Positions 4,334 to 61,297 of a stretch of 64,000 nucleotides of DNA are shown here, piece by piece (position 1 is the first letter of the stretch; the number at the start of each line of letters is the position of its first letter). The notes below the pieces were generated by a model, which worked only from the letters and a program-made list of their open reading frames with translations, did not search any database and had not been told where the DNA came from. Source of the stretch: an uncultured Clostridia bacterium. Lineage in GTDB: Bacteria > Bacillota > Clostridia > Christensenellales > CAG-138. The stretch lies in assembly GCA_944336625.1 (NCBI GenBank), contig CALVLF010000101.1:1029-65028 (forward strand), in the 5' to 3' direction. The position numbers and the translations under genes were made by a program.

Positions 4334-4756
4334 AACCTCTAAGATTCATCTATAACAACTGGTTGCTGTTTTTGGCCGCGCCCCGCCAAAGCAGCAGGCC
4401 GGCAGCAGAAAGAGGCTTTAGAATACAAGCGGATGCAGAATAATAAAAAGCCTTGTCTTTCAAAGTTCTCTCCCAATGATTCGCACCCCGCTGCAAAAGG
4501 GGAACCATCTGCGAAACCTGACAGGGCAAACATTTTTTAGCGATTGCATAAGGTACGGTATTTGCGGCATATCATAAGTAATCATTATAAACAATACTCC
4601 ATGCCAGCCCTTCCGTCAATAGAAAAATATGGTAAAATATCCTTATTTTTCTAAAAATGTCCAAATCTTATTTTTCTTGCGGGCCAGCATGACTATGCTA
4701 TACAATAAAAATATATACAGACGAAAAACCGGATTATAAGCAAGGAGGCTGCTGCC

Positions 4757-5718: not shown

Positions 5719-6612
5719 ATGCTTACCCGGCAGCTTCGAATCGGCCCCCAGGAGGCAGGGCGCACCGTTGAGAGCCTCCTTCGGGGGGAGCTGGGCCTTT
5801 CCCAGGGGCTGATCGCCCGCCTCAAGCGGCGGCCCTTGGGCATCCGCTGTAACGGCCAGCGGGTATTCACCAACGCCCGCCTGGCGGAAGGGGATCTGCT
5901 GGAGGCGGAGGTAGGGGACTGGCCGGTGAAGCGGGCCCTGCCCATGGAATACCCCCTTTCCATCCTGTATGAAGATGCATACCTGCTGGTGTTGGATAAG
6001 CCGGCGGGCCTAGCCGTCCATGCCTCTACCCGCAGCCCCGGGGAGCTCACCTTGGAAAACGCCCTTGCCTATTACCTGCCCCCGGAGGCGGGGGCCCACC
6101 CGGTGAGCCGGCTGGACCGGGGTACCACCGGGGTAATGACCTGGGCCAAAAGCGGCTATATGCATGCCCTTTTACGCCGCCAGGTCCATACGCCGGACTT
6201 TTTTAAGGCCTATACGGCCATAGCTTTGGGCTCTGTTTTCCCAGCCCACGGCCATATTCGCCTGCCCATAGGCTTCGCCCCCGGCTCCCATTATCAGCGG
6301 GCCATAGAGCCCCAGGGCCAGCCCGCCCATACGGAGTATTTCGTCCTGGCCCGGGGCGGGGGCTATACCTTTCTCCGGCTCATTCCCCATACGGGGCGGA
6401 CCCACCAGCTTCGGGTTCATATGGCAGCCCTGGGCTACCCCCTGGCAGGCGACTGGCTTTATGGCCAGCCCTCCCCCGCCATTGCCCGGCCCGCTCTCCA
6501 TGCCAGCCACCTTTCCCTGCAGCATCCCCTGACAGGGGAACGCCTTTCCCTGGAGGCGCCCCTTCCCCCGGACATGGCCCGCCTCCTCTTTTCTTCCGGC
6601 ATAACCTGCTAA
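5719..6612 (+). CDS. RluA-family pseudouridine synthase (RluD/RluC-like, with S4 domain)
   Basis: The conserved region starts at MLTRQLRIGPQEAGRTVESLL (S4-like). Catalytic motif HPVSRLDRGTTGVMTWAK and HQLRVHMAALGYPLAGD are present. The upstream 42 codons of the track ORF overlap the preceding gene and were rejected. Confidence 0.9.
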   Translation: MLTRQLRIGPQEAGRTVESLLRGELGLSQGLIARLKRRPLGIRCNGQRVFTNARLAEGDLLEAEVGDWPVKRALPMEYPLSILYEDAYLLVLDKPAGLAVHASTRSPGELTLENALAYYLPPEAGAHPVSRLDRGTTGVMTWAKSGYMHALLRRQVHTPDFFKAYTAIALGSVFPAHGHIRLPIGFAPGSHYQRAIEPQGQPAHTEYFVLARGGGYTFLRLIPHTGRTHQLRVHMAALGYPLAGDWLYGQPSPAIARPALHASHLSLQHPLTGERLSLEAPLPPDMARLLFSSGITC

Positions 6613-6616
6613 GGTC

Positions 6617-7392
6617 CTACGCGGACGGCGGCGCTAAGCGCGCGGCTATAGCGCGCGCAGACGTTAGCGGGTAGTCTTCCGCAGTGCCCGCGCCCTTCCT
6701 TAAAAGCCGCCGGGGGCCGTAGATTATGGCCCCCGGCTTTTTCCAGCCGCGCGCAAGCGGGGCCTTATCCATACCGCAAAAGGCCCAAAGTAAGGCGGAG
6801 CGTCGCAAAGGCGCTTGCAACTGAGCAGCGGAGCCGTAGCGACGGCCTTTTGCGGAGAGGAAGAGCAAGGGAGCGACGCGACGGCGGCTTTTTCGCCTAC
6901 AGCTAAAAAGCCGCCGGAGTAAAGCGGACTTTGCGATGACGAGCCGCCGGGCGAAATCCGGTTCGCCCGGCTTTGGCGGGGCGGCTGAAAGGAACGTTCG
7001 TGGAAATACGCAAACGAGGCGGCGGGCGCGCACAGCGCGCACAAAGCAAGGGCAGGGGCTTTGCCCCTGCCCTTGCTTTGGTTTGGCGGCCCTTCGGCCC
7101 GCCAAACGCCGCCGCCCCCTCCTTACCCCCGCCTGCGCAAAGCACCCCCATCCCAAAGGATGGGGGTGCTTTGGTTGCCGCAAAAGGGCTGCTTAGCCCC
7201 TTTTCCACAGGCTGACGCCGGCGGAGCGGATTCTTCCGCCCTGCCTTGTTCGCTTTGCTCATGGCAAGGCTGCTATATAAGGAATGCCCGGCTTAGGCCG
7301 GGCCCTGCCCTTCTGCCGCACCTGCCGCCAGAAGGGGTTGCGCCTCGGGGCTGCGCCCCGAGGCATGAAAACGATTCTTCGGCAGGCTGCCC
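6617..7392. repeat. Modular GC-rich multi-hairpin repeat locus R1
   Basis: Lies between convergent gene ends. Contains block T (6617-6705), terminator-like hairpin H (6706-6742), blocks X and G (6771-6981), three-hairpin cassette type A (7016-7119), and further perfect hairpins (for example 7138-7173, 16 bp). The blocks recur at six other loci. Confidence 0.9.
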
Positions 7393-9621
7393 TTAAGCGC
7401 TGGCGCTATGGCTGCGCTGCCGCACCCGCCTAAGCTGCAGGGCAATGACGCCGATGAGAATAACCAGGCCGATGCTGTCCGTCACAATGCCGGGGATGAT
7501 CATGGCCAGGCCGCCGCCTACGAGAAGGATGCGCTCATACCAGGTGCAACGGTCCTGCACAAAGCCCGTCAAGCCCCCGGACAGGGCATACATGCCCACC
7601 AGGGCCGTACAGGTGCTCAGGATGATATCCCCTACGGAAGAATCGATCATCAGCATCACCGGGTTGAGCACGAAGATGTAGGGCACGATAAAGGCCCCTA
7701 TGGCGATTCGTGTGGCCGTAACCCCCGTTTTAAAGGGGTCGCCCTTGGCGATAGCAGCCCCTGCCATGGCAGCCAGGGCCACCGGCGGCGTAATATCCGC
7801 GATGATGCCAAAGTAGAACACGAACAGGTGGGCGCTCATGATGATGGCCATGGTGGGCTCTGCCAGGCCGTTCATGGATACCAGCACGTTGATCAGCGCC
7901 GAGGCGCAGATGGTAGAGGTGATGAGGTAATTAGCCGTGGTGGGCACGCCCATGCCCAGGACAATGGAGGACAGCATGGTGAAGAACATCAGCAGGAAGA
8001 TATTGTTCCCAGCGATGCTAGCTAGGCCTGTGGCGAATTTCAGGCCGATGCCCGTCAGAGTAACGGTGCCCACGATCATGCCTGCCATGGCGCAGGCAAC
8101 GGCCACGGAAAGGACGCTGCGGGCGCCGCTCTTAAGGGCGTCCATAATGTCCATGGGGTCAAAGCCCAGCTTATCCGCCAGCTTGGGCCCCCGCTTCCAG
8201 TTGATGATAGGCGCCAGGATGAGCCAGAGCACCAGAGACCATACGGCATACTGGGTAAAGCGGATCTCCCCGATGCCAAACTGGGCCAGGAGCCCCGGGA
8301 ACCAGTTGTGGGCCTGCATGCAGGTGAGCATAAGGCCGATGGGGATGAGAGAATACCAACGGATGCTGTGGGCCATGTGGGAAGTAAGGATGGCCCCCAG
8401 GGCGGCATAAGTGGGGGTAGTTTTGCTGGAAAGCATATAGATCATGAAAATCAGGGGCAGAAGCAGGTGGCCCCCCTCGGCCATGACCTTGCCCAGCTTG
8501 GGGATTTCATCCGCAGACATGCCCCTTAGGCCGATCTTGCGGGCCTCATGATGGACGCTAATGAGGATGCCGGAAAAATAGAGGATGGCGGGGATGATGG
8601 CGGATTTAACCACCTCCGCATAGGGGAAGCCCGTAGCGTCCGCCATGAGGAAAGCCGCCGCCCCCATGATGGGGGGCATGAGCTGGCCGCCGGTGGAAGC
8701 CGCCGCCTCCACCGCCCCGGCGAATTCCGGGCTATAGCCCAGCTTTTTCATGGTAGGGATGGTAAAGGAGCCGGAGCCCACCGTATTGGCCACGGAGGAG
8801 CCGGATACGGTCCCTTCCAGGGCGGAGGCGATAACGGCCACCTTGGCCGGGCCGCCCACCCGCTTGCCCGCCAGGGCATTGGCCAGGTCGATGAATAGCT
8901 TGCCCACCCCCGTCTTTTCCAGGAAGGCGCCAAAGAGGATGAACAGGAAGATATAGGTGGAGGATACCCCCAGGGGCGTGCCGAATACGCCGTTGAGGGT
9001 GAAATACATATGGGTGACCACCTGTTTTACGCTGTAGCCCCGGTGCCCAAAGGAGCCGGGGATATATTTGCCGAATACGGCATAGGCCAGGAACAGCAGC
9101 ACGATGATGAGGATGGGCAGACCTACTACCCGGCGGCAGGCTTCCATCAGCAATACCATGCCTACCAGGCCGGCGATGATCTCCACCGTGCCAAAGTTGC
9201 CTACGTTCCGGACGATATATTCATAGTTGAAGGGAATATACAATACGGCGGCCAGCGCCAGCAGGCCCAGGACGATATCATACCAGGCGATCTTATCCTT
9301 TCTAAGATCCCGCCTGGCCGGATAGAGCATATAGACCAGGAAAAGCACAAAGGCCAGGTGTACGGCCCGGAGGACCTGGGGCGGGATGGTCCAGATGCTG
9401 GTGTAGATCTGGAAAAGGGAAAAGGCGATGAGCGTGATGGAGATGATCAGGGCAGGCGGGCCTTTGAGCCGGTTGCGGTAGGCGGCCTCCTTATCGTATT
9501 TCTCCAGAACGGCCTCCGCCTCCAGCCGGGCCCGCTCATCTTCGCTCAGGCCCTCCAGGTTCAGCTCGGGGCTGGGCGGGGGCTGGGGGGCATTTTCTTT
9601 TTTCTTTTTACGTCGTTCCAT
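7393..9621 (-). CDS. TRAP transporter fused permease (TAXI-type, DctQ-DctM fusion)
   Basis: About 742 aa, highly hydrophobic with many TM segments. The N-terminal cytoplasmic K/E-rich tail followed by LKGPPALIISITLIAFSLFQIY is typical of TAXI-associated fused permeases. I prefer the start MERRKKKK (GGGAGG RBS). Confidence 0.9.
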   Translation of the reverse strand: MERRKKKKENAPQPPPSPELNLEGLSEDERARLEAEAVLEKYDKEAAYRNRLKGPPALIISITLIAFSLFQIYTSIWTIPPQVLRAVHLAFVLFLVYMLYPARRDLRKDKIAWYDIVLGLLALAAVLYIPFNYEYIVRNVGNFGTVEIIAGLVGMVLLMEACRRVVGLPILIIVLLFLAYAVFGKYIPGSFGHRGYSVKQVVTHMYFTLNGVFGTPLGVSSTYIFLFILFGAFLEKTGVGKLFIDLANALAGKRVGGPAKVAVIASALEGTVSGSSVANTVGSGSFTIPTMKKLGYSPEFAGAVEAAASTGGQLMPPIMGAAAFLMADATGFPYAEVVKSAIIPAILYFSGILISVHHEARKIGLRGMSADEIPKLGKVMAEGGHLLLPLIFMIYMLSSKTTPTYAALGAILTSHMAHSIRWYSLIPIGLMLTCMQAHNWFPGLLAQFGIGEIRFTQYAVWSLVLWLILAPIINWKRGPKLADKLGFDPMDIMDALKSGARSVLSVAVACAMAGMIVGTVTLTGIGLKFATGLASIAGNNIFLLMFFTMLSSIVLGMGVPTTANYLITSTICASALINVLVSMNGLAEPTMAIIMSAHLFVFYFGIIADITPPVALAAMAGAAIAKGDPFKTGVTATRIAIGAFIVPYIFVLNPVMLMIDSSVGDIILSTCTALVGMYALSGGLTGFVQDRCTWYERILLVGGGLAMIIPGIVTDSIGLVILIGVIALQLRRVRQRSHSASA

Positions 9622-9798
9622 GTGGTTTCCTCCCAATGCGATGTTGCTGGGCCGCCAGGAACCGGCCCATAGGCTGGGGAAAAAGGGAGATTCTATCCCT
9701 TCCCCGGGTTTGGGCGGCCCAAAGCGGCCGCAGCCGGAAGCAATCTCCTTTGGCGGCCCCGCCCAGGGGCTTGCGCCCCTCCTGAAAAGGGGCGGCCC

Positions 9799-10326
9799 CT
9801 AGCCGGCCCCCAGGAGGCAATCGAGCAGGCTGGCCCTCTCCACGCCCAGGCGGACAAAGGTCCCCGCAGGCGCCAGCTCCAGAAGCCGCCTTTCCCCGCC
9901 CCGGTACAGGAGCCGCTGGTCCGGCACCTCCTGCAAAAGGATGGGAATGCTATCCTGCTTTTTGTCAATATCCGAAAGAAGAAATCCCTCCGGCGTATTT
10001 TCGAAGCTGCCCCCAATTCCATCTGCCAGCACCGGCATCCCCCAGCCATAGGCGGAAAACAGGGTGCTTTCCAATACCAGGCTCCCGCCGGATACCCGCA
10101 GGGTATCGGTGACGGGGGTCAGGTTGACGGAATGGGTATAGCAGAGGGCAATGGTCTCCCCTTCCCGAAGGGGAAGCAGAAGGAGCCGTTCCCCCGTCCG
10201 CCCGTTCCGCAGAACAAGGGCCGGAAACAATGGCAGGCAAAGGGCCAGGGCAAGGGCCAGAATGAGGGCCGGGAGCAGGAGACGGCGCCCCCTGCTTCCC
10301 AGTAAGTTTTTGCGCAATGGCTTCAT
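9799..10326 (-). CDS. DUF1850 domain protein (TAXI-TRAP accessory)
   Basis: 175 aa with an N-terminal TM or signal segment. It sits between the TAXI binding protein and the fused permease, which is the conserved position of DUF1850. Motif YTHSVNLTPV. Confidence 0.75.
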   Translation of the reverse strand: MKPLRKNLLGSRGRRLLLPALILALALALCLPLFPALVLRNGRTGERLLLLPLREGETIALCYTHSVNLTPVTDTLRVSGGSLVLESTLFSAYGWGMPVLADGIGGSFENTPEGFLLSDIDKKQDSIPILLQEVPDQRLLYRGGERRLLELAPAGTFVRLGVERASLLDCLLGAG

Positions 10327-10338
10327 CCGAAGGATGGC

Positions 10339-11385
10339 TTACTCGATGGTAATCCCCTGTTCTTCATAGTAGCGCAGGGCGCCGGGATGGAAGGGAACGG
10401 TAATGCCGTCCGCTACTTTGTTGATATCCAGGTCGTTGCCCCGGGCATGGCCGGCAGCCAGCTCATCCTGGTGCTCGAAGAGGGCTTTGGTGATCTGATA
10501 GGCGACCTCCTCATCCATATCCTCGGTGCAGGCCAGGGTAGCGATAATGGCTACGCTCTCCGCCTCTGCATCCCCGTAAACATCCGCGCCGATGGTGGTG
10601 CGGGCATAGAAGGGGTATTGGGCGATGAGGGCATCCGCCGTTTCCCCGCCGATGGGCACCACCACGATATCCGTGGTATTGGCCAGCTCCACAATGGCCG
10701 TATTGGGCAGGGCGGAGGTAGCGAAGGCCGCGTCCACCGTGCCGTTCTGCATGGCGGTGGAAGCATCGGAGAAGCTCAGGTACTGTACATCAAAGTCGTC
10801 ATAGCTCAGGCCAGCCGCCTCCAGGATCTGCTTGGCATTCACTTCAGAGCCGGAGCCCGCGTCTCCCACGCAGACCCGCTTGCCCTTCAGGTCCTGGATG
10901 GAAGTAATGTTGGAGGATTCCAGGGCCACCAGCTGGATCACCTCCGGATACATGCCGGCAATGGCCCGCAGCTTGGGCATAGCCCCGTCCTCCGCCATGG
11001 AATCCGTGCCGGAATAGGCATAGCCCAGCACGTCGTTCTGGAGGATGGCCAGCTCCGCCTCGCCGTTGTTCAAAGAGCGGGCGTTGGCAGCGGAAGCGCC
11101 AGAGGTGGTGGCAGTTACCTCCAGATTATTCACGTTGGCAGTGAGCACGTTGGCAAGAACGCCGCCCAGGGAATAATAGGTGCCTGCATCGCCGCCGGTC
11201 ACCATGAGCAGCCGCTGGAGGCTGGCGATTCCCTCGCCGGTGGCCGCGGAATCCGTAGCAGCAGTATCCGCAGCAGCGGTATCCGCAGCGGCAGTATCCG
11301 CTTCCTGGCCGCAGGCAACGGCGCTGAGGGCCAGCAGGCCGATCAGCAGGAGGGACAGCAGCTTTTTCATAGCAGTGTGTTTCAT
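10339..11385 (-). CDS. TAXI-family TRAP transporter solute-binding lipoprotein
   Basis: Lipoprotein signal LLALSAVAC|G. The mature part, TGGDAGTYYSLGGVLANVL...VCVGDAGSGSE, is typical of TAXI/Imp proteins. I prefer the start MKHTAMKK (GGAGGAG RBS). Confidence 0.9.
   Translation of the reverse strand: MKHTAMKKLLSLLLIGLLALSAVACGQEADTAAADTAAADTAATDSAATGEGIASLQRLLMVTGGDAGTYYSLGGVLANVLTANVNNLEVTATTSGASAANARSLNNGEAELAILQNDVLGYAYSGTDSMAEDGAMPKLRAIAGMYPEVIQLVALESSNITSIQDLKGKRVCVGDAGSGSEVNAKQILEAAGLSYDDFDVQYLSFSDASTAMQNGTVDAAFATSALPNTAIVELANTTDIVVVPIGGETADALIAQYPFYARTTIGADVYGDAEAESVAIIATLACTEDMDEEVAYQITKALFEHQDELAAGHARGNDLDINKVADGITVPFHPGALRYYEEQGITIE
11251..11301. repeat. 15-bp tandem repeat (about 3.4 copies) inside the TAXI gene
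   Basis: The sequence atccgtagcagcagt / atccgcagcagcggt / atccgcagcggcagt / atccgc encodes the (ADTAA)n linker just after the lipobox cysteine. Confidence 0.85.
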
Positions 11386-15304: not shown

Positions 15305-16489
15305 GTGAACAGAAAACTTTACAGGGCATTGGCTCTGGCCCTGGCCCTGGCCTTCGTGCTGAGCATGGCAGGGGTAGCCCTGGCTGACGCTACCTTCAGC
15401 GCCTCTTCCGGCACGGCTTACGCCACCGAGGCCGTCAACGTCCGCTCCGGCCCCGGCACCAGCTACAGCGTGCTGGGTTACCTGAGCCGCGGCGAAAAGG
15501 TCACCATTACCGGTACCGTCAGCAACGGCTGGACCCAGATCCGGCTGCCCGGCGGCTATTATGGTTATGTGAGCAGCGCCTATCTGAGCCGCTCTTACCC
15601 CACCGGCGGCAGCACCATCATCACCCCCTCGGGGGATCGCTATAAGGTTACCGCCGGCGCCCTGAACGTACGCCGAGGCCCTGGTACCAACTATAGCGTC
15701 GTTGCCGTGCTGGATAAAGGGGATATCGTTACCCGCATCGGCCAGAGCGGCAAATGGTTTAAAGTAGCCACCTCTGACGGTTCCGATGCCTGGGTATCCT
15801 CCAAGTATCTGGCCAGCGTCAGCGATACCGTGGTCGTTCCTGGGGGTACCACTACCATGTATGCCACCACCGGCGTCAACGTCCGCTCCGGCCCCAGCAC
15901 CAACTACAGCATCGTAGGCGGTCTGGAGCGGGGGGATAAAGTGACCCGTACCGGCACCAGCGGCAACTGGACCCGTATTTCCTGGGGCAATGGCAGCGCC
16001 TATGTATTCAGCAAATACCTCCAGACCAGCCCTATCAGCGGCGGAAATAACTGGACCTCCGGCAGCACCTATACCCGCTATACCACCACCCTGCTCAACA
16101 TCCGCTCCGGCCCCAGCACCAGTTATTCCATTGTAGGCACCGTGAGCAAGGGCCAGCCCCTTTCCTGCGTAGGTACCAGCGGCAACTGGACCAAGATCGT
16201 CTGGGGCAGCGGCTATGCCTATGCTTACACCAGCTACCTCACCAGCAGCCCTTACTATGGCAATATCTGGGGCAGCAGCCAGGATGTAATCTTTGGCAGC
16301 AACCGGGTCATGATGCAGACCTCGGCCCCCATCTATACCATTGCTAATTCCAGCTCCATGTACTATGTGCAAACCCTGCCTGCGGGAACCCGGGCCACCC
16401 TGCTGGCCATGAACGATGGCTGGGCCAAGATCCTCTACAATAACCAGGTCTATTATACCTGGGGCAGCAACCTGGCTTACGCAGATTAA
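15305..16489 (+). CDS. Secreted protein with five SH3b (bacterial SH3) repeats
   Basis: GTG start with AAGGAGGGA RBS. Signal peptide MNRKLYRALALALALAFVLSMAGVALA. Five repeats of the type (V/L)N(V/I)R(S/R)GPxTxYSxxGxxxxGxxV...W. No catalytic domain is recognisable. Confidence 0.85.
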   Translation: MNRKLYRALALALALAFVLSMAGVALADATFSASSGTAYATEAVNVRSGPGTSYSVLGYLSRGEKVTITGTVSNGWTQIRLPGGYYGYVSSAYLSRSYPTGGSTIITPSGDRYKVTAGALNVRRGPGTNYSVVAVLDKGDIVTRIGQSGKWFKVATSDGSDAWVSSKYLASVSDTVVVPGGTTTMYATTGVNVRSGPSTNYSIVGGLERGDKVTRTGTSGNWTRISWGNGSAYVFSKYLQTSPISGGNNWTSGSTYTRYTTTLLNIRSGPSTSYSIVGTVSKGQPLSCVGTSGNWTKIVWGSGYAYAYTSYLTSSPYYGNIWGSSQDVIFGSNRVMMQTSAPIYTIANSSSMYYVQTLPAGTRATLLAMNDGWAKILYNNQVYYTWGSNLAYAD

Positions 16490-16511
16490 GCCGGGCGGCA
16501 TCTGAAACGCC

Positions 16512-16541
16512 GGGGCATGCCAATGGGCATGCCCCTTTTTT
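16512..16541 (+). terminator. Rho-independent terminator
   Basis: GGGGCATGC-caatgg-GCATGCCCC followed by TTTTTT. It begins 23 nt after the SH3b gene stop. Confidence 0.75.
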
Positions 16542-16562
16542 GCCCCCTTCCTTCCTCCCTTA

Positions 16563-16830
16563 GCCTGGCCCCCGGGTCCTGCGCGGACGGCGATAGCGCG
16601 CGCGAACGTTGGCGGAAAACGATGGTTAGAGCCCGCGTCTTTTCTTAAGCGCCGCCCGGCCCCGTAGATTATGGGGCCGGGCTTTCGCCGGAGGCTGAAA
16701 GAAGCCTTCGTGGAAATAGGCAAGGTGGGGCGGCGGGTGCGCGGAGCGCACACAAAGGAAGGGCCGGGGCTTTGCCCCGGCCCTTCCTTTGGTTTGGCGG
16801 CCCTTCGGGCCGCCAAACGCCGCCGCCCTC
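16563..16830. repeat. Modular multi-hairpin repeat locus R2 (T-H-cassette A, forward orientation)
   Basis: T about 16563-16650, H 16651-16685, cassette A 16727-16828. A GC-rich tail with weaker similarity continues to about 16960. Confidence 0.9.
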
Positions 16831-17151
16831 CCCGCCGGGAGCCGAAGGCAAAAGTCCTCTTGCAAAGGGTTGCCATTAGGCCGAAGCGCCGCGGGAGCGC
16901 TCCCCCCGCTTCCACCCATAAAAGCCATTCGGGCGTCAGAAGCGCAAGAGCCCGGCACAGCCGTGCTTTGCCTGTATAGCCCTGGCCATTTTTGCGAAAG
17001 GGCGAAGCCCTGCCGGAGGCATATCGGGGTAGCGCCCCCGCCAGGGGTATGCTATAATGATTTTAGCAATTCCTTTTTCTGCCCTTCGTGTACAAGGGTA
17101 TCTTCTTATCCAGAACATTTCCAAAACATTCTGAAAGAAAGGACCTTTCTT

Positions 17152-33120: not shown

Positions 33121-33196
33121 AATCCAATCCCTCCCGATCGCTGGCAAAGTGCCTTTTTTCAACAAAAGTAAAGCACAGCCCCTGCATAAAGTCAAG

Positions 33197-33696
33197 GCCA
33201 GCCTCCCCCGGGTCCTGCGCGCACGGCGGCGCTAAGCGCGCGGCTATAGTCGCGCGCGGAAGTTGGCGGGAAGCAGTGGTTTGAGCCCGCGTCTTTCGTT
33301 GTAAGCCGCCCGGCCCCGCAAATCATGGGGCCGGGCTTTTCCCTTCCTCGCGCAGACGGAAGGGCATCCCTTTCTAGCTGCCTTTCCTGCCGCCGGGGCC
33401 CTGGATTATGGGCCCCGGCTTTTTCCGCAGGTGAAGCGGGGCGTTGGTGGAAATACGCGGGGGGCGGCGGGTGCGCAGAGCGCACACAAATGCAGGGCCG
33501 GGGCGCAGCCCCGGCCCTGCATTTGGTTTGGCGGCCCTTGGGGCCGCCAAACGCCGCCGCCCCCTCGCCGGAGTTTTTGCTGACCTTCCTTCCCGGCGGC
33601 AAGGAGCGGAAAAAGCGAGAAGTCAGCCCAGTTGCAAAGGAGCGCAAGGAAGGGCTCTTGCGCCCCCAAGGGCTTTTTGCTTTCCGGTTGGCCCGG
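33197..33696. repeat. Modular multi-hairpin repeat locus R3 (T-H-H-cassette A, forward orientation)
   Basis: T about 33197-33304, H 33305-33340 and 33389-33424, cassette A 33459-33564. A GC-rich tail runs to the putP stop. Confidence 0.9.
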
Positions 33697-38419: not shown

Positions 38420-38600
38420 TATTACATTCTCATCTATCCTGGCCTCCAGGAATTCTACGCTTTCCTGCTTTCGAGCTTGAACGGCAGCGCGGCGCAGTTA
38501 TTTCTGCCGGCTGGAAAGGGGTGTGAGGGTCTGGTTTCTTATCCAGAAGAAAAGAGTTTTCTTTCCTTTCCCTAGCCCAGTTATTTCTATTACAACTGCA

Positions 38601-38877
38601 TACCCTTAACGAACAAGGGTATACACGCCTGAGCAGGCCTTCTTTGGCCCATTTCTTTGTTGCAGTCGCTCGAATTAGCGCTGCTAGTCCATCGCTCCTG
38701 CGCCGCGAACTGGGCGCAAAGCAGGCCTGCTAAGGTCGAAGAGTTTTGGTGGGCTGGGCCGCTAGAGAGCAAGGCGTGGCCCCGCAGCCATAGTGGACCC
38801 TATTGCAAGGGGCCACAACGATGCTATCTGGCGGCCCAGCCCGCCAAAACCGTGTATCCCCTTGTCCGTTAAGGGTA
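38601..38877 (+). ncRNA. Unclassified structured element, copy B; homologous to 1979-2170 and carrying a ~100-nt nested-hairpin insertion
   Basis: The 27-nt ends are complementary (TACCCTTAACGAACAAGGGTATACACG / CGTGTATCCCCTTGTCCGTTAAGGGTA). An inner helix forms between CCTGAGCAGGCCTTCTTTG and CAAAGCAGGCCTGCTAAGG. The conserved core AGCGCTGCTAGTCCATCGCT is at 38677-38696. The extra hairpin GGTGGGCTGGGCCGC...GCGGCCCAGCCCGCC spans 38748-38845. The element ends 28 nt before the glgB RBS. Confidence 0.35.
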
Positions 38878-45140: not shown

Positions 45141-45710
45141 GTGCTGCGCGCAGGTTGATATTCGCGCGCAGACGCCTGCGGGAAACCTGCCGCAGTGCCC
45201 GCGTCCTTCCTTAAGAGCCGCCGGGGCCCTGGATTATGGGCCCCGGCTTTATCTTTCCTTGCGCAGGCGGAAGGGCTCCCTTTCCGACTGACTTTTCTTC
45301 CGCCGGGGGCCAGGATTATAGCCCCCGGCTTTCCCGGCGGCTGGAAGGGAAGTTGGCGAAGATACGGGAGGGGCGGCGGCGGGAGCGCGAAGCGCTCCTG
45401 GAGGGGCCCTTTGGGCCCCTCCCCTTCGCAAGGGGCCGGGATGCCAGCATCCCGGCCCCTTGCGAAGCGCCGCCGCCCCCCTGCGAGGCTTCTTCAAGGC
45501 CCCTTTTCAGCCCCGCCAAAGCCGGGCAAGCCGAACCTTGCCCGGCGGCATATACGGCCCCTTCCATCGGGATAAGGCCCCGCTTCCGCGAGGATGGAAA
45601 AAGCCGGGGGCCATGGCCAACGGCCCCCGGCGATTCTTAAGAAAGGGCGCGGGCACAAGCCACCGCTTCCCGCAAACGCTTGCGCGCGAATATCGCCGTG
45701 TGCGTAGCAC
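45141..45710. repeat. Modular multi-hairpin repeat locus R4 (inverted-arm composite around a type B cassette)
   Basis: The left arm (T+H, 45141-45250) and right arm (45598-45710) are about 75% identical inverted copies. Internal H at 45301-45332, cassette B at 45370-45481, and an inverted G hairpin near 45498-45530. Confidence 0.9.
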
Positions 45711-45804
45711 CCCTTTCTCCGCTAAAAGTCACCATCCGTGGGCTGAATTGTGACAATGTTGAAAAAGCGCTTGTTGGCACCTCTTTTTATGTTAAAATAA
45801 ACCC

Positions 45805-47718
45805 ATGAGTTTGCACGATATTTATCATGATTCCAGGCGGCTCCGGTATAGAACGCCCTTCGGTGCAGCCAAGCAGGGGGAGCCGGTGCGGCTGATGGCG
45901 GAATATCAGGGGCCGAACCGGCTTCTGTTGCGGCTCTGGGTGGAAGGCCGGGAAGCGCTTATGGAGGGCCGCAGGGAAGGCGGCTGCGTAGAATACACCT
46001 TCTCGCCGGAGAATACGGGGCTGATCTGGTATTATTTCATCGAGGAAGGACCGGGGGGCCAGCGGCGGTATTATGGGGCCGAGGGCAACCGGGGCGCCGG
46101 GCGGATCTACGATCAGCCGCCCCCCTCCTGGCAGCTGACGGTTTATGACCCGGCCTTTGAAACCCCTGCCTGGTTTCGGGAAGGGATCGCCTATCAGATT
46201 TTTCCGGACCGCTTTTACCGCAGCGGGCCCGTGGAAGGGGTACAGGCCCATGAAGCCCTGGGGCACCGGGTGGTGCTGCATACGGCTTGGGAAGAGCAGC
46301 CCGCCTATCTGCCCCAGCCGGGGGAAGCTTATTACGACCCCTGTGATTTTTACGGGGGAAACCTGCGGGGCATACAGGAAAAGCTCCCTTATTTGGCTTC
46401 CCTGGGGGTGCGTTGCCTCTACCTGAACCCCATCTTCCTCTCCCCCTCCAACCACCGGTATAATACGGCGGATTACCGCCGTATCGACCCCATGCTGGGT
46501 ACGGAGGAGGATCTTATAGCCCTGGTGCGGGAAGGGGAACGCTATGGCATCCGCATCATGCTGGATGGCGTCTTTTCCCATACGGGGGCGGACAGCGTCT
46601 ATTTCGACCAAAATGGCGTTTATGGCAACGGTGCATGCAGCAATCCCGCCTCCCCTTACCGGGCCTGGTATGAATTCAGCCACTATCCCGGGGAATATAA
46701 AAGCTGGTGGGGCTTCCGCTCCCTGCCGGAGGTAAAGGAGATGGAGCCCAGCTATATGGATTTCATCGCAGGCACCCTGGCCCGGTATCACAGCCTGGGG
46801 GTCAGCAGCTGGCGGCTGGATGTGGCAGATGAGCTGCCGGATGCTTTCATCGCCTTTCTTAGGGAAAAGCTAAAGGCCCTGGATAGCCAGGGGGTGCTCC
46901 TGGGGGAGGTATGGGACGATGCCTCCAATAAAGAGGGCTTTGGCGCCCGGCGCAAATATGTGGATGGGGCCGAGCTGGACAGCGCCATGGGCTATCCCTT
47001 CAAGGATGCGGTTCTGGCTTTCCTTCTGGGGCAAATCCCGGCGGAAGAGCTGCAGAGGCGGCTCATGACCCTTTGGGAAAACTATCCCCAGCCCTTTTAT
47101 GCTGCCCAGCTCAACATCCTAGGCAGCCATGATACCATCCGGGCCCAGACGGTGCTCTCCGGCGCCCCGGGCCGGGATGCCCTGCCCCGGGAGGAGCAGG
47201 CCAAATGGCAGCCCAGCCCGGAGAACAGGGCTCTGGGCCTGGCCCGGCTCCGCCTGGGCGCCCTGCTGCAATTCGGCCTGCCGGGGGTGCCCTGCATCTA
47301 TTATGGGGATGAGGCCGGGCTTACGGGTATGGCAGACCCCTTCTGCCGGGGGACCTACCCCTGGGGCAGGGAGGATGGGACGCTGCTGGCCTTTTATCGG
47401 GCCATCGCCGCCGCCCGGAAAGGCTGCGCTGCCCTGTATAGGGGGGGCTGCGCCATGGCGGCCCTTTCCCCGGATGTATTCGCCGCCCTGCGCTGCGAAT
47501 GGGAAAGCGGGGCCATCCTGCTGGTAAATCGGGGTAACCAGGCCTATCATGCTGTTCTGGGGCTGGATCGGTTCCAGGAAGGGCCGGATGTGGGCCGGAT
47601 GTGGATTTCCGGCCGGTACCGGGATGCGGCTACCGGGGCGGAGTATCAGGCGGAAAAAGGGACGCTTTCCTTGCGCCTTGGCCCCCTGCAGGGGCTGTTA
47701 CTGATCAGAATCGACTGA
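45805..47718 (+). CDS. GH13 alpha-glucosidase/neopullulanase-type glycoside hydrolase
   Basis: 637 aa. GH13 conserved regions YQIFPDRF, GGNLRGIQEKLPYLASLGVRCLYLNPIF, GIRIMLDGVFSH, SWRLDVADEL, GEVWDD and LGSHDT. Confidence 0.9.
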   Translation: MSLHDIYHDSRRLRYRTPFGAAKQGEPVRLMAEYQGPNRLLLRLWVEGREALMEGRREGGCVEYTFSPENTGLIWYYFIEEGPGGQRRYYGAEGNRGAGRIYDQPPPSWQLTVYDPAFETPAWFREGIAYQIFPDRFYRSGPVEGVQAHEALGHRVVLHTAWEEQPAYLPQPGEAYYDPCDFYGGNLRGIQEKLPYLASLGVRCLYLNPIFLSPSNHRYNTADYRRIDPMLGTEEDLIALVREGERYGIRIMLDGVFSHTGADSVYFDQNGVYGNGACSNPASPYRAWYEFSHYPGEYKSWWGFRSLPEVKEMEPSYMDFIAGTLARYHSLGVSSWRLDVADELPDAFIAFLREKLKALDSQGVLLGEVWDDASNKEGFGARRKYVDGAELDSAMGYPFKDAVLAFLLGQIPAEELQRRLMTLWENYPQPFYAAQLNILGSHDTIRAQTVLSGAPGRDALPREEQAKWQPSPENRALGLARLRLGALLQFGLPGVPCIYYGDEAGLTGMADPFCRGTYPWGREDGTLLAFYRAIAAARKGCAALYRGGCAMAALSPDVFAALRCEWESGAILLVNRGNQAYHAVLGLDRFQEGPDVGRMWISGRYRDAATGAEYQAEKGTLSLRLGPLQGLLLIRID

Positions 47719-47731
47719 AGTTGAGGTATCC

Positions 47732-48160
47732 ATGGGATTTTTCAATCGTTTATTCCAGGGCCGGTATGGCCCGGATAAATTCAGTCTGGCCCTGCTCTGG
47801 GCCGGCGTTATCCTGAGCCTGGTCAATGGCTTTTTCATGGGCATCCCGGTGGTTTATAGGATCCTCCGGGTGCTAGTACTGGCCCTGTATATCTTTGGCA
47901 TATTCCGGATGTTTTCCCGGAATTTTGCTGCCCGTCACCGGGAGCTGGCCTGGTATAACGGCCTGGTCGGCCAGATAAAGGGCCTGTGGCGTCGGGTTCG
48001 CTATGGCAGCCGGAATGTGGTAAACCTGAATGCGGAACGGAAAAAATACAAATACCTCATCTGCCCCCAGTGCCGGCAAAAGCTCCGGGTGCCCAAGGGC
48101 AAAGGCAACCTCAGGGTAACTTGCTCCAAATGCGGTTGCAAATTCAACGCGAAAAGTTAA
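47732..48160 (+). CDS. Membrane-anchored zinc-ribbon protein
   Basis: 142 aa with two N-terminal TM segments. C-terminal CPQC...CSKCGC zinc ribbon. RBS GAGG. Confidence 0.7.
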   Translation: MGFFNRLFQGRYGPDKFSLALLWAGVILSLVNGFFMGIPVVYRILRVLVLALYIFGIFRMFSRNFAARHRELAWYNGLVGQIKGLWRRVRYGSRNVVNLNAERKKYKYLICPQCRQKLRVPKGKGNLRVTCSKCGCKFNAKS

Positions 48161-48296
48161 GCGCCCCTTTCAGAGGCCGGCGCCAAAAAGAGAAAATACC
48201 GCCCCTTTTTCTCCAGCCTGTGTTATAATACTGTAGAGATTCGCATAAGCTAACTTTTGCGGACAGGATAAATCAACAAAAGGAGAGACTTTTTAC

Positions 48297-48500
48297 ATGA
48301 CCATCGATAAAACCATGAACATCGTAGAGCTCCTGGGCGTCAACGAAGGGATCGCGGACATCCTCATGGAGAGCGGCATGCATTGCCTGGGCTGCATCAT
48401 GGCCCACGGGGAAACTTTAGAGCAGGCCTGCGCCGTCCACGGCATCGATGCGGATGCCCTGGAAGCCAAGATCAACGATTACCTGGCTGCTCAGGCTTAA
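48297..48500 (+). CDS. DUF1858 domain protein (hybrid-cluster-protein-associated redox disulfide family)
   Basis: 67 aa. The MHCLGCxMAxxETLEQAC motif is typical of the family. RBS AAAGGAGAG. Confidence 0.8.
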   Translation: MTIDKTMNIVELLGVNEGIADILMESGMHCLGCIMAHGETLEQACAVHGIDADALEAKINDYLAAQA

Positions 48501-48545
48501 GCATGGCCCTAACACACCCAAAGCGGGCGCTCCCTGCCACCTTGT

Positions 48546-49255
48546 AGGTGCTAAGTGCAGGGCTGCTATAGCCGCGCACAAACATTTTTTAAACGATTGT
48601 TTGTGCCCGCGTCTTTTTCTTACCGCCGCCGGGGCCTAGGCCATGGCCCCCCGGGTGCTACGCGCACGGCAATATTCGCGCACGAACGTTGGCGGGAAGT
48701 GGCGGTTTGCGCCCGCATCCCTCAGTTACCGCCGCCCGGCCCCGTAGATTATGGGGCCGGGCTTTTTTCTGCCGAAAAAACCATCTGGGGTTTAGGAGCC
48801 GCAGCCCCATACCGCAAAAGGCCCAAAGCAAGGCGGAGCGTTGCGAAGGCGCCTGCAACTGAGCAGCGACGGCCTTTTACGGAGAGGAGGGCAGAGCCGA
48901 GCGCTGCCTGTGGCAGATGAAGCGAGGCGGAAGCCCAGTGAGCAAGGGAGTGCTAGGAAGGGCCCCCTGGCCCGACGCAGCACGACCATTGCGAACTGAG
49001 AGGTTACGCCGGATACTATGCACCGCCCCCAAACCTCACCGCAGCTAAGCGGACTTTGCGACGACGAGCCGCCGGGCAAGGTTCGGCTTGCCCGGCTTTG
49101 GCGGGGCTGAAAAGGGGCCTTGAAGAAGCCTCGCAGGGGGGCGGCGGGTGCGCACAGCGCACACAAAGGCAGGGCCGGGGCAGAGCCCGGCCCTGCCTTT
49201 GGTTTGGCGGCCCCAAGGGCCGCCAAACGCCGCCGCCCCCCTTCCGCCGCCCCCT
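48546..49255. repeat. Modular multi-hairpin repeat locus R5 (T-H-T-H-X-G-cassette A, forward orientation)
   Basis: H at 48625-48657 and 48731-48768. Blocks X and G at 48809-49105 (homologous to 6771-6981). Cassette A at 49136-49240. It lies between convergent gene ends. Confidence 0.9.
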
Positions 49256-49260
49256 GCAGG

Positions 49261-50265
49261 CTATCCTTCCGCTTCCCATTCCTCCAGGGGGGCAATGGTA
49301 ACGCCGGTATAATAGTGCTCCAGGATTTCCCGGAAATCCGCCCCTTCCAGGGCCATGGCCCGGGCGCCATACTGGCTCAGGCCCACCCCGTGGCCATAGC
49401 CCTGGGTGGTGATTTCCACCTGTTCCCCGGAAATGTCGATTTGAAAATTGGCGCTGCGCAGGTCCAGCAGCTTGCGCAGATCCCGGCCGGAAATGGTCAC
49501 GTTTCCCAGCTGAAGCTGGGCTACCTGGCCGCTCTCGTAGCGGGAAAGTACTTCTACCTGCTCCTCCAGCTTGCTTTGTGAAAGCTTTGCCTTGGCATAA
49601 GTTCCGTTGACAGCTTCCGTAAATTCCTCCCTGGAGAAAGTGCGGGTCTGCTGATAGTTGGCCGCATCCTCTTCGCCGGGGCTATCCACCCCCACGAGGT
49701 AGGGCAGGGCAGCGGAAAATACATTCTGCGCATCCTCGGTATGCCCCCCGGCGGCGCTGTGATACAGGGCCTCGATGGGTTCCCCGTCATAGAGGGCGAT
49801 GAGGCCATGGGTCCCGCTTACCGCCTCTAAGAGTTTGTCCTGATACGCTTCTGCGTTATCCCCCCAGGTATCTGCCAGTTCCGCCTCTGTGCGGTAGCTC
49901 TGGCAGCATGTGCTGTCCGTGCAGATATCCGCCCCGCCCCGGCCACAGGGGTTCCCGCCCAGGGCCTTCATGCGGCGGACGGTATAGGTGCGGGCGGCAA
50001 CGGCCTGGGCCTTGAGGGCCTCCAGGGGAAAGGAAGCGGGCATCTCCCCGCCGATCACACCATAAAGATAAGCGTCTAGATCCATCTCCACCGTGCGCGC
50101 CTCCTTATGCAGGTAAACGGTGAGGGAAGGCCCTTCCAGGTCCATTGCCTCTTCGGAAGCCCTGGAAAGGCGCCAGCCCCGCAGGGCCGCCACCAGCAGG
50201 CATAAAAGAAGGCATAATAGCAGCAGCGGGGCCAGGCGCCCCTGTTTTTTCCATCCATATCCCAT
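49261..50265 (-). CDS. spoIID: Stage II sporulation protein D (SpoIID/LytB domain lytic transglycosylase)
   Basis: N-terminal TM segment. SpoIID motifs LKAQAVAARTY, CTDSTCCQSY, HSAAGGHTE and GHGVGLSQYGA. The start is ambiguous between 50265 (AGGA RBS) and 50301. Confidence 0.85.
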   Translation of the reverse strand: MGYGWKKQGRLAPLLLLCLLLCLLVAALRGWRLSRASEEAMDLEGPSLTVYLHKEARTVEMDLDAYLYGVIGGEMPASFPLEALKAQAVAARTYTVRRMKALGGNPCGRGGADICTDSTCCQSYRTEAELADTWGDNAEAYQDKLLEAVSGTHGLIALYDGEPIEALYHSAAGGHTEDAQNVFSAALPYLVGVDSPGEEDAANYQQTRTFSREEFTEAVNGTYAKAKLSQSKLEEQVEVLSRYESGQVAQLQLGNVTISGRDLRKLLDLRSANFQIDISGEQVEITTQGYGHGVGLSQYGARAMALEGADFREILEHYYTGVTIAPLEEWEAEG

Positions 50266-57933: not shown

Positions 57934-58536
57934 ATGGATATTGCGGATGAAGCCCTGGTAAGGCAGGCCCAGGCCGGCGACGGAGAGGCAGCGGAGCGCC
58001 TGTGCGAACGGTATAAGGATTTGGTGCGGGGATTGGCCCGGCCTTATTTCCTCCTGGGCGGAGACCGGGATGACCTGCTCCAGGAGGGGATGATCGGCCT
58101 GTATAACGCCATCCTCGGCTATGCGCCGGAGCGGGGGGCCCCCTTCCGCTCCTTTGCAGAGCTGTGCATCACCCGGCGAATCCTCAGCGCCGTGAAGATG
58201 GCCGCCCGCAACAAGCACCTGCCCCTGAACAACTACGTTTCCCTCAGCGGCCGCCTTACGGCAGACCCGGAGGACCAGCGCCAGCTTATGGATGCCCTGC
58301 CCCTGGGCGCCCAGAATCCGGAGGATACCTTTTTGCAAAAGGAGGCGGATGCCTATATGCAGTCCCTTCTGCAGGAACGGCTTTCCCCCTTTGAAAAGCA
58401 GGTGGTGGAGCTCTTTCTTTCCGGCCTCCGGTACCAGCAGATTGCCGAGGCCCTTTCCTGCTCCCGCAAGAGCGTGGATAACGCTCTGCAGCGGGTCCGG
58501 CGGAAGATTGCAGAGGCGCCGGAGGAGGGGCGCTGA
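57934..58536 (+). CDS. sigH: RNA polymerase sporulation sigma factor SigH
   Basis: The region 2 sequence DLLQEGMIGLYNAILGY....FRSFAELCITRRILSAVKMAARNKH is SigH-typical. The mrnC-rlmB-sigH neighbourhood is conserved in Firmicutes. Confidence 0.9.
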   Translation: MDIADEALVRQAQAGDGEAAERLCERYKDLVRGLARPYFLLGGDRDDLLQEGMIGLYNAILGYAPERGAPFRSFAELCITRRILSAVKMAARNKHLPLNNYVSLSGRLTADPEDQRQLMDALPLGAQNPEDTFLQKEADAYMQSLLQERLSPFEKQVVELFLSGLRYQQIAEALSCSRKSVDNALQRVRRKIAEAPEEGR

Positions 58537-58544
58537 GGGCGCGG

Positions 58545-58815
58545 GCACTGGGGGGCGGCGGCGTTTGGCGGCCCAAAGGGCCGCCAAACCAAAGGCAAGG
58601 CCGGGGCGCAGCCCCGGCCCTGCCTTTGTGCGCGCTCTGCGCGCCCGCCGCCCCCTTTGCGTATCTCCACAAACGTTCCTTTCAGCCTCCGGCGAAAGCC
58701 TGGCCCCATAATCGACGGGGCCGGGCGGCACGCAAGGAAGGGCGCGGGAACTGGGGCGGGCTGCCCGCCAGCGTCCGTGCGCTGTAGCCGCGCGCTAGCG
58801 CCTTCCGACCCCCCA
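58545..58815. repeat. Modular multi-hairpin repeat locus R6 (cassette A-H-T, reverse orientation)
   Basis: Cassette A at 58551-58655, H at 58695-58729, T about 58730-58815. It starts 9 nt after the sigH stop. Confidence 0.9.
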
Positions 58816-60411: not shown

Positions 60412-60539
60412 CGAGCTTTTCAGCTTTGGCTTGTTCGTACCGCACGGCCAGCCAAAACTGCGAAGAACCCTTGCTGCGCAAGGCCCTTCCCTGGGGATCC
60501 CTTGCGCACTGGGCGGATTTCTCGTTTTTCCGTCGCTTA

Positions 60540-61265
60540 CGGCCAAAAGGTAGCTTTGCAGAATCTCCGCCGGAGGGGGCGGCGGTGCTTCGCAGCGGGC
60601 CGGGATGCTGGCATCCCGGCCCGCTGCGAAGGGGAGGGGCCGGTTTTACCGGCCCCTCCAGGAGCGCTCCGCGCTCCCGCCGCCGCCCCCGCGTATTCCC
60701 GCCAGCCTTCCTTTTTGCCTATGGAGAAAGCCGGGGGCCATGGCCTAGGCCCCCGGCGGCACATACGTCCCCGTCCAGCGGGATAAGGCTTCGCTACCGC
60801 AAGGAAAGAAAAAGCCCGGCCCCATAACCTAGGGGCCGGGCGGGGCTTAAGGAAAGTCGCGGGCAGGAACCAGCGATTCCCACAAACGTCTGTGCGCGAA
60901 TATGGCCGTGCGCGTAGGACCGGGGCGGCGGCGTTTGGCGGCCCCAAGGGCCGCCAAACCAAAGGCAGGGCCGGGCTGTGCCCCGGCCCTGCCTTTGTGT
61001 GCGCTCCGCGCACCTGCCGCCCCCCGCCGGGCTTTCGCCGGCCTTCCTTTTCCCCTCCGCCAAAGCCGGGCGAACCGGATTTCGCCCGGCGGCAGGAAAG
61101 GCAGCTAGAAAGGTGTGCCCTTCCGCTTGCGCGAGAAAAGATAAAGCCGGGGCCCATAATCCAGGGCCCCGGCGGCACTTAAGGAACGGCGCGGGCTCTG
61201 CGCGGCAGGCTGCCCGCTTAACGTTTATGCGCGAATATCGCTGTCCGCGTAGGACCGGCGCTATA
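60540..61265. repeat. Modular multi-hairpin repeat locus R7 (cassette B-H-H-T-cassette A-G-H-T, reverse orientation)
   Basis: Cassette B at 60575-60690. H at 60727-60760, 60810-60845 and 61143-61176. T about 60846-60921 and 61177-61262. Cassette A at 60922-61025, with a G hairpin near 61066-61093. Confidence 0.9.
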
Positions 61266-61297
61266 GCCGGGCTTTTCAGGCAAAATGGCGCTCCTGC

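Follow-up and report, generated by a model that had tools for sequence, protein, structure and literature searches.

This study concerns a 64,000-nucleotide stretch of DNA (hereafter the window) from an uncultured gut Clostridia bacterium of the order Christensenellales (CAG-138; assembly GCA_944336625.1, contig CALVLF010000101.1, positions 1,029 to 65,028 of the forward strand), and a palindromic cassette of about 105 nt that recurs in the spacers between its genes. The neighbouring genes are all housekeeping genes of a spore-forming Clostridia bacterium with a GC content of about 60%. One copy of the cassette (33459-33564) lies between the stop codon of an SSF symporter gene and the start of QueH, within a repeat island (R3) that is one of seven in the window, which by self-comparison sum to 3.77 kb (5.9% of the window). 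In the cassette two short arms form a closing helix around three abutting hairpins (H1, H2 and H3), giving a four-way junction; unless other loci are named, "copies" refers to the eight cassettes of the window, which come in two versions, A and B. We find that the cassette is one swappable module of a larger mosaic, and hypothesize that the family is probably a DNA-level repeat akin to repetitive extragenic palindromic (REP) elements and bacterial interspersed mosaic elements (BIMEs), or to miniature inverted-repeat transposable elements (MITEs), rather than a functional RNA gene.

The cassette and its fold

A covariance model was built from the cassette copies and then run to locate copies across the window, where it matched six of type A (7012-7122, 16723-16833, 33457-33567 and 49134-49243 on the forward strand; 58548-58658 and 60918-61027 on the reverse strand) and, at lower score, two of type B (45369-45480 forward; 60575-60690 reverse). 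An earlier, sequence-only reading had listed eight copies, all of which are recovered within a few bases. In the window there are five exact instances of the closing-helix pattern, GGGGCGGCGG-N70-100-CCGCCGCCCC, against none in 100 dinucleotide-preserving shuffles, and the pattern is therefore not a matter of chance. Minimum-free-energy folding of every copy returns the closing helix and the three abutting hairpins that had been proposed, at -86 to -106 kcal/mol, and folding of both strands, a check which that reading had suggested, gives the same fold on each at near-equal energies: for the copy at 33459-33564, -101.2 (+ strand) and -99.6 (- strand) kcal/mol as RNA, and -66.3 (+ strand) and -64.5 (- strand) as DNA, with z-scores of -11.2 to -12.5 and none of the shuffles reaching such stability. 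The three-hairpin cassette of about 105 nt is a real feature of this DNA.

The stems and loops that had been quoted are correct: H1 is GTGCGC or GCGCGC, H2 occurs in three variants in which every difference is mirrored on the opposite arm, and the H3 stem is near-invariant, its sole disruption being a C.C mismatch in the 7016 copy, which also carries an A.C mismatch in its closing helix. Closing helices are perfect in five of the eight copies and have one mismatch each in those at 7016, 16727 and 60922, while a 1-nt deletion near the H2 apex is common to the 49136 and 60922 copies. In the type B copy at 45370, H2 (10 bp) and H3 (20 bp) are unrelated to those of type A, and comparison of the stems of the two type B copies confirms that their differences are paired. 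Types A and B have in common the arms and an H1-like hairpin (GNGCGC-rra-GCGCNC) and nothing else. Across all cassette copies, those of the window and of other loci alike, H1 has a purine-rich loop (aca, gga, aga, gaa, aaa) without exception on whichever strand reads arm-H1-H2-H3-arm, and this holds for A and B; the H2 and H3 loops are free of such asymmetry between strands. Several H1 loops contain the motif GCGAAGC, which forms an unusually stable DNA mini-hairpin. For H2 and H3, copies that are otherwise similar can have loops that are exact reverse complements of each other (gca/tgc, ttg/caa and ttt/aaa), three such pairs being seen where about 0.5 would be expected by chance.

The cassette matches no known RNA family. 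No Rfam model, a match to which the sequence-only reading would have counted as a refutation, is reached at gathering thresholds; at E<=1 only generic long-hairpin matches appear (mir-4776, ftsZ-DE, ar35), far below threshold. Transfer RNA, tmRNA and a tRNA-derived origin are likewise rejected, as that reading had held for tRNAs: ARAGORN finds no genes, and the loops have 3-4 nt, not 7.

One module of a mosaic repeat

Alignment and self-comparison correct the sequence-only reading in that the cassette is not autonomous: each window copy sits inside a larger repeat, with a conserved linker of 34 nt ahead of it in six of the eight cases. Repeat analysis and alignment of ten composites give a fixed order: a module M1, an optional module M2, the linker D9, and a cassette of type A or B, which further modules such as M3 may join (Table 1). 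The cassette is thus one swappable module of a mosaic, present in interchangeable versions A and B.

The last part of M1 is a GC hairpin whose stem varies and whose loop, (G/C)T(A/G)GATTATG, is conserved, followed by a run of T; this hairpin looks like an intrinsic terminator on the forward strand of the composite, the strand on which the M1 and M2 hairpins score as terminator-like. The cassette itself is followed by runs of C and has no T-run, one copy in Candidatus Pelethousia gallinarum (see below) having TTTT after its extended stem. Primary sequence is also kept in unpaired parts of M1 (CCTTCCTTAAG, ACGTT and the GATTATG loop). A segment at 61026-61057 (reverse strand), in the position that matches D9, has weak similarity to it. 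Between islands R4 and R5, the 80 nt at 45470-45549 and 49068-49147 (M3 plus a cassette arm) are 100% complementary, and yet the cassette interiors alongside differ (B in R4, A in R5), which implies a very recent conversion with its boundary in the arm.

Table 1. Repeat modules, cassettes and islands of the window.
Feature	Position	Strand	Description
Type A cassette	33459..33564	+	Closing helix GGGGGCGGCGG/CCGCCGCCCCC; H1 GTGCGC-aga-GCGCAC; H2 18-bp stem, loop gca; H3 GTTTGGCGGCCC-ttg-GGGCCGCCAAAC
Type A cassette	7016..7119	+	H1 GCGCGC; three mirrored H2 differences
Type A cassette	16727..16828	+	H2 variant CAAAGGAAGGGCCGGGGC
Type A cassette	49136..49240	+	H3 loop caa; preceded by M3, not D9
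Type A cassette	58551..58655	-	One wobble-type mismatch in H2: A.C (G.T on other strand)
Type A cassette	60922..61025	-	Next M1 module directly abuts
Type B cassette	45370..45481	+	Closing helix of type A; similar short H1 GGAGCGC-gaa-GCGCTCC
Type B cassette	60575..60690	-	Paired changes separate its H2 and H3 from those of the 45370 copy
M1 module	33229..33342	+	~115 nt, primary sequence conserved
M1, other copies	6631-6743, 16576-16688, 45141-45253, 48547-48650 (divergent), 48654-48767	+
M1, other copies	45597-45711, 58693-58796, 60808-60921, 61140-61256	-
M2 module	33349..33425	+	Optional second terminator-like hairpin unit
M2, other copies	~45254-45335 (+), 60724-60807 (-), 61058-61139 (-)
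D9 linker	33427..33460	+	34 nt, non-palindromic (...GTGGAAATACGC...); connects M1/M2 with cassette
D9, other copies	6980-7013 (+), 16690-16723 (+), 45336-45369 (+), 58657-58690 (-), ~60691-60723 (-)
M3 module	49039..49135	+	Hairpin unit, then GGGGCCTTGAAGAAGCCTCGCAGG; adjoins 49136 cassette
M3, other copies	45482-45549 (inverted, beside cassette), 6914-6982 (+)
Repeat island R3	33202..33693
Other repeat islands	6613-7133, 16509-16838, 45141-45712, 48547-49295, 58518-58802, 60446-61268

Exchange and inversion between closely related strains

Contigs of related strains, among them those reached through the 67-aa DUF1858 protein of the window, carry flanking genes 98-99.7% identical to those of the window and show that the islands are constantly reshuffled, with interiors exchanged or inverted between the arms GGGGCGGCGG/CCGCCGCCCC. 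At R4 the window and contig L029 share identical flanks as far as the arms, between which the window carries a forward type B interior and L029 an inverted type A one, the breakpoints falling exactly inside the 10-12-bp arms. At R5 a metagenome-assembled genome (MAG), GCA_949284455.1, has type B reversed in place of the window's type A; in that genome R4 and R5 form a concordant inverted repeat, whereas the window is a hybrid. Contigs L040 and L001 have the interior of the cassette inverted with respect to D9 and M1.

Other changes affect the modules around the cassette and the genes between islands. Short patches pass from copy to copy by conversion, as at R4 in L029, where 12 nt of the M1 loop are replaced by the variant of other M1 copies; modules lying between direct M1 copies come and go, as at R6, where contigs L021 and L022 have about 650 bp of extra modules between two such copies; and the lineage of contig L031 lacks a cassette at R5, where the gene downstream also differs. 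Inverted islands can also invert the genes between them. Contig L030 matches window positions 47310-49239 and, further on, 45549-38871 in the opposite orientation; its two alignments overlap by 172 nt at the inverted repeat of M3 and cassette, and since the alignment reverses at this overlap, the 3.7-kb amylase-DUF1858 segment, which the R4/R5 pair brackets, is inverted in that contig.

Orthologous cassettes differ by 0.8-6.5%, against 0.3-1.8% for flanking genes and 4-8% for neighbouring spacer, and the R6 orthologues (the 58551 copy and that of L021) differ by three substitutions, all uncompensated. Because their divergence is like that of spacer and the changes are uncompensated, the stems drift roughly neutrally over short timescales, and there is no sign of strong purifying selection on the cassette. 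Many strain contigs (L033-L039) end inside islands. Contig L021 ends (4200-4343) in a long perfect palindrome centred on the terminator hairpin of a permease gene, which is probably an assembly fold-back artefact.

Mirrored substitutions and the pattern of pairing

The sequence-only reading had proposed that the fold, not the sequence, is maintained, and had taken covariation as its sign. In the 15 type A copies aligned to the covariance model, 98.1% of cells are paired and double changes occur in 17 of 48 pairs; none of 500 shuffles reaches the observed covariation, and slid controls fall to about 45-53% paired. Thirteen of the 17 covarying pairs lie in H2, one in H1 and none in H3, and hardly any variation is seen in the inner eight pairs of the closing helix. 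Across genera, H2 is not homologous position by position and allows no base-by-base alignment, so the counts of double changes are in part counts of whole-stem replacement. The proposal thus describes H2, and H2 and H3 of type B, where complementarity is kept as sequence changes; it does not describe the closing helix, H1 and H3, where the sequence itself is conserved, even in Candidatus Pelethousia gallinarum.

Base pairs are nearly all Watson-Crick, and in this the two strands are alike. Cells with a G-U pair number 4, against 58 with a double change, in the same 15 copies. Mismatches are private to single copies; the forward strand has three G.T and seven A.C or C.A, and hence there is no strand bias, the other mismatches being C.C, G.G, T.T and 1-nt indels. 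The terminal hairpin of M1 varies by GC-to-CG swaps only and has no G-U pair, and where the window copies have compensated changes, most are transversions (G>C, C>A, G>T), without a wobble intermediate. The marks of selection on a structured RNA, namely G-U intermediates and tolerance specific to one strand, are not seen, in a comparison whose power is low with so few mismatches, and the pattern of pairing looks like that of DNA rather than RNA.

The inference from covariation to selection on an RNA or single-stranded DNA (ssDNA) fold does not hold, as palindrome-level conversion, which the sequence-only reading had itself named as a refutation, is active at these loci. Covariation is not evidence of such selection here because interiors are swapped and inverted between strains that are about 99% identical, because loops occur as reverse complements with G-U pairs near-absent and no strand bias, and because changes are mostly transversions, divergence is near-neutral and mismatches stand uncompensated. 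Mirrored substitutions alone are no indication of a functional RNA, and are typical of repeats of this class; the DNA-level processes that give rise to them are directly evident here.

Distribution

Among 185,579 species genomes the invariant H3 pattern turned up in one, that of Candidatus Pelethousia gallinarum (a MAG from chicken caecum), where it has two loci, and it was also present in 16 metagenome contigs, of which six (from gut samples) hold true cassettes and ten hold unrelated simple terminator hairpins; viral contigs gave no match to it. In Pelethousia the closing helix, H1 and H3 have the same sequence as in the window and M1-like modules are present; its H2 stems are unrelated perfect palindromes of different length, and the closing stem is prolonged by palindromes of 14-16 bp that differ at each locus. 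At relatives with 72-83% nucleotide identity, the sampled loci held neither cassette nor M1. A search with a translated island, a spurious protein, returned four matches among 5.8 billion proteins, and the repeat family is therefore rare in public data. Beyond the species of the window it was found only in Candidatus Pelethousia gallinarum and a few gut contigs, and it is lineage-restricted, with a narrow and patchy distribution.

One of the four matches, contig L040, has two further islands. At 7625-10510 it carries a RepA_N gene and a gene for a large serine recombinase (8288-9928), which ends about 110 nt before an island made up of a type B cassette (10040-10165) and two M1 copies; this island may be the boundary or the attachment site of an integrative element.

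Islands, gene ends and other repeats

The 5' end of M1 (GGTCCTACGCGG) abuts the stop codon of the upstream gene at three independent loci (TAA-GGTCC, TAG-GTCC and TAG-TCC, with the hyphen marking the junction), namely at window positions 6610-6625, at about 6890-6900 in L001 and at about 13825-13835 in L040 (minus strand); the repeat may have been inserted at a gene end or may supply it. Gene callers predict "proteins" of 150-210 aa through islands in other contigs (L029 3836-4345; L030 1483-2064), and the window open reading frames (ORFs) at 33192-33647 and 6617-7183, both on the reverse strand, likewise run through islands; these are spurious ORFs.

Two other repeats in the window have no relation to the cassette. 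A pair of inverted repeats, each of about 147 nt, at 2024-2170 and 38598-38746, the latter just upstream of glgB (38907), are about 71% complementary over 69 nt and have no Rfam match, and a gene at 15305-16489 encodes four tandem bacterial SH3 domains whose internal DNA repeats (15419-16252) account for the direct-repeat families D6 and D13.

Discussion

We consider it probable, with appreciable room for doubt, that the composite is a lineage-restricted, DNA-level palindromic mosaic repeat of a REP/BIME- or MITE-like kind, and that this lies nearer the truth than a functional RNA gene. Template switching from arm to arm during replication would carry a change over to the facing arm in a single step (PMC8794818), ectopic gene conversion would spread changes from copy to copy, and foldable copies might be preferentially propagated, possibly by a putative hairpin-recognising enzyme. 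The four-way junction would then be the shape that either single strand takes when unwound, as on the lagging-strand template, or when transcribed, and effects at the RNA level, for which a very stable block to exonucleases in the 3' untranslated region (3' UTR) and termination at the M1/M2 T-runs are candidates, would be a by-product or a secondary, co-opted role.

Among known families, the closest likeness of this mosaic repeat is to the REP/BIME systems of Enterobacteria and Pseudomonas, which are also GC-rich, extragenic, high-copy palindromes, built as mosaics of units and conserved linkers, placed after gene 3' ends and variable in arrangement between strains. BIME modules are chimeric, with copy number and arrangement that vary from strain to strain (PMC3333891, PMC2817692), and REP classes differ in sequence and keep complementarity (PMC3333891). 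Here too module orders are both fixed and chimeric, occur in both orientations and vary between strains, a match that is one of way of working and not of sequence membership of the Escherichia coli family. A REP or REPIN unit, however, is one imperfect palindrome (20-40 nt) that bears a conserved GTAG 5' of its foot (PMC3333891), REPs being hairpins of 30-40 nt with a required mismatch, whereas the cassette has 105 nt, four nearly perfect helices and arms that start with GGGGCGGCGG and lack GTAG at their foot; the host belongs to the Clostridia and is not a proteobacterium; and a REP-associated tyrosine transposase (RAYT, of the Y1 type), whose gene typically has the repeats on either side, was found neither in the 51 window ORFs that were scanned nor in the gene calls of the other loci that were fetched.

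The structured MITE-like repeats (bcr1 of the Bacillus cereus group, BOX, RUP, Correia and ERIC) are similar in being non-coding units of 100-400 bp whose terminal inverted repeats fold the whole unit and which may be modular, as in BOX A-B-C; in bcr1, compensatory changes keep a cruciform-like fold and the distribution varies between strains (PMC3184786). The cassette has such terminal inverted repeats in its 10-12-bp arms, GGGGCGGCGG/CCGCCGCCCC, but a MITE with target-site duplication is rejected, as inspection by eye showed direct repeats beside none of about 20 copies, the eight of the window and those of Pelethousia included (the Pelethousia flanks are inverted and not direct repeats). 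No related transposase or insertion-sequence ends are known, and the cassette always lies within other modules or a larger palindrome, never cleanly in unique DNA. Strict membership therefore fails both for REP (no GTAG, and not a single 30-40-nt hairpin) and for MITE (no target-site duplication). The family is absent from Rfam and from the literature searched, and has not previously been catalogued.

Template-switch hairpins leave multi-base mirrored changes, perfect stems, inverted loops and no G-U intermediates (PMC8794818), and the cassette bears these footprints, although template switching is a mutational mechanism and not a repeat family, and its part here is deduced from patterns. As for other origins, the phage and plasmid collections gave no blastn match, and an integron and a CRISPR array are both rejected on the 2-17 kb spacing of the copies, their housekeeping neighbours and the lack of intI and of cas genes among the 51 scanned ORFs.

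Several observations weigh against a DNA-level mosaic repeat. The arguments from wobble pairs and transversions rest on small numbers (three against seven mismatches, and about eight compensated changes), and the inversion and cassette swaps are seen in metagenome contigs, the L030 inversion being possibly an error of assembly path across an inverted repeat of 170-190 nt. No mobilising enzyme was found among the 51 ORFs (a part of those in the window) that were scanned with Pfam, transposases and recombinases included, and there was neither a target-site duplication nor a clean empty site to demonstrate transposition. The strand-specific features (the T-runs of M1 and M2, the conserved M1 loop and the purine-rich H1 loops) would fit a function of one strand, and M1 follows a gene of its own orientation in five of the seven islands, sometimes abutting the stop codon, as a terminator would.

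One alternative is a cis-acting RNA, in which the islands would serve as 3' UTRs, with the four-way junction selected as an exonuclease block or insulator and M1 and M2 as terminators; we regard this as unlikely, if the least so of the alternatives. All seven islands follow gene 3' ends (three in convergent and four in tandem spacers) and none lies in a divergent promoter region, the hairpins of M1 and M2 have T-runs and terminator-like scores, M1 starts at or just after stop codons in R1, R4, L001 and L040, the fold is extremely stable as RNA (-100 kcal/mol, z about -11), and roles of this sort are known for the REP elements of E. coli (PMC3333891, PMC4550694). The composite, co-oriented with the upstream gene in five islands, is nevertheless antisense to both neighbouring genes in R3 and R6; its interior is inverted or replaced with flanks unchanged; wobble pairs are not tolerated; orthologues drift near-neutrally with unrepaired mismatches; the cassette has no U-tract of its own; and a branched structure of 48 bp far exceeds what is needed to stop an exonuclease. 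A role in the 3' UTR is plausible for M1 and M2 and, in the case of the cassette, possible.

Structure-specific recombination of single-stranded DNA, in which the folded arms and H1 would be recognized in the manner of attC sites or by HUH/Y1-like enzymes (RAYT, IS200/IS605) and the interior excised, inverted or exchanged, seems to us decidedly improbable. It would account for breakpoints exactly inside the arms, for the arms and H1-like hairpin as the sole features common to A and B, for the strand asymmetry of H1 loops, for interiors whose orientation differs between loci and strains, for the locus-specific palindromes that extend the Pelethousia closing stem and for the large serine recombinase gene that ends about 110 nt from a cassette in L040. 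Like an integron attC site, whose function depends on a folded single strand, the cassette has conserved outer inverted sites around a variable palindromic centre, with exchange at the conserved ends. However, no candidate enzyme tracks the element in the DNA examined, and homologous recombination or gene conversion through the D9 and M3 flanks (80 nt of 100% identity for M3) explains the same outcomes; the arms have no GTAG/CTAC or attC R-box motifs, the cassette lacks the R''/L''-L'/R' core motifs and extrahelical bases of attC, and its copies are dispersed every 2-17 kb among housekeeping genes, with no intI and no promoterless gene cassettes. More doubtful still is the specific proposal that the arms and the purine-looped H1 form a platform for an HUH/Y1- or integrase-like recombinase that cuts at the base of the four-way junction and exchanges or inverts the interior; if true, this would amount to attC-like, structure-guided shuffling of non-coding cassettes, which would also drive inversions of the genes between islands.

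An independent, structured non-coding RNA gene, with M1-D9-cassette transcribed from its own promoter and acting in trans, is very improbable: the conserved unpaired M1 sequence (CCTTCCTTAAG, ACGTT and the GATTATG loop), the terminator-like 3' hairpin and an orientation independent of neighbouring genes would suit it, but no sigma-70-type promoter was found in the three islands scanned, no Rfam family matches, the terminator-like hairpins stand in the middle of the composite and not at its end, and about one copy per 8 kb, with variable modules, truncations, inversions and strain-specific presence, is unlike a gene under selection.

For the DNA-level mosaic repeat that we favor, the meaning of these observations is in the first place practical: about 6% of the window is an undescribed repeat, which matters for annotating MAGs of gut Clostridia because its islands break assemblies and create spurious ORFs. 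The islands also coincide with differences between strains, in the form of module swaps, a 650-bp indel and a 3.7-kb inversion. Finally, H2 is perfectly paired and yet hypervariable beside stems that never vary, and so offers a clean natural test case for the question of whether "compensatory" evolution in palindromic repeats reflects selection on the fold, or one-step template switching and gene conversion.

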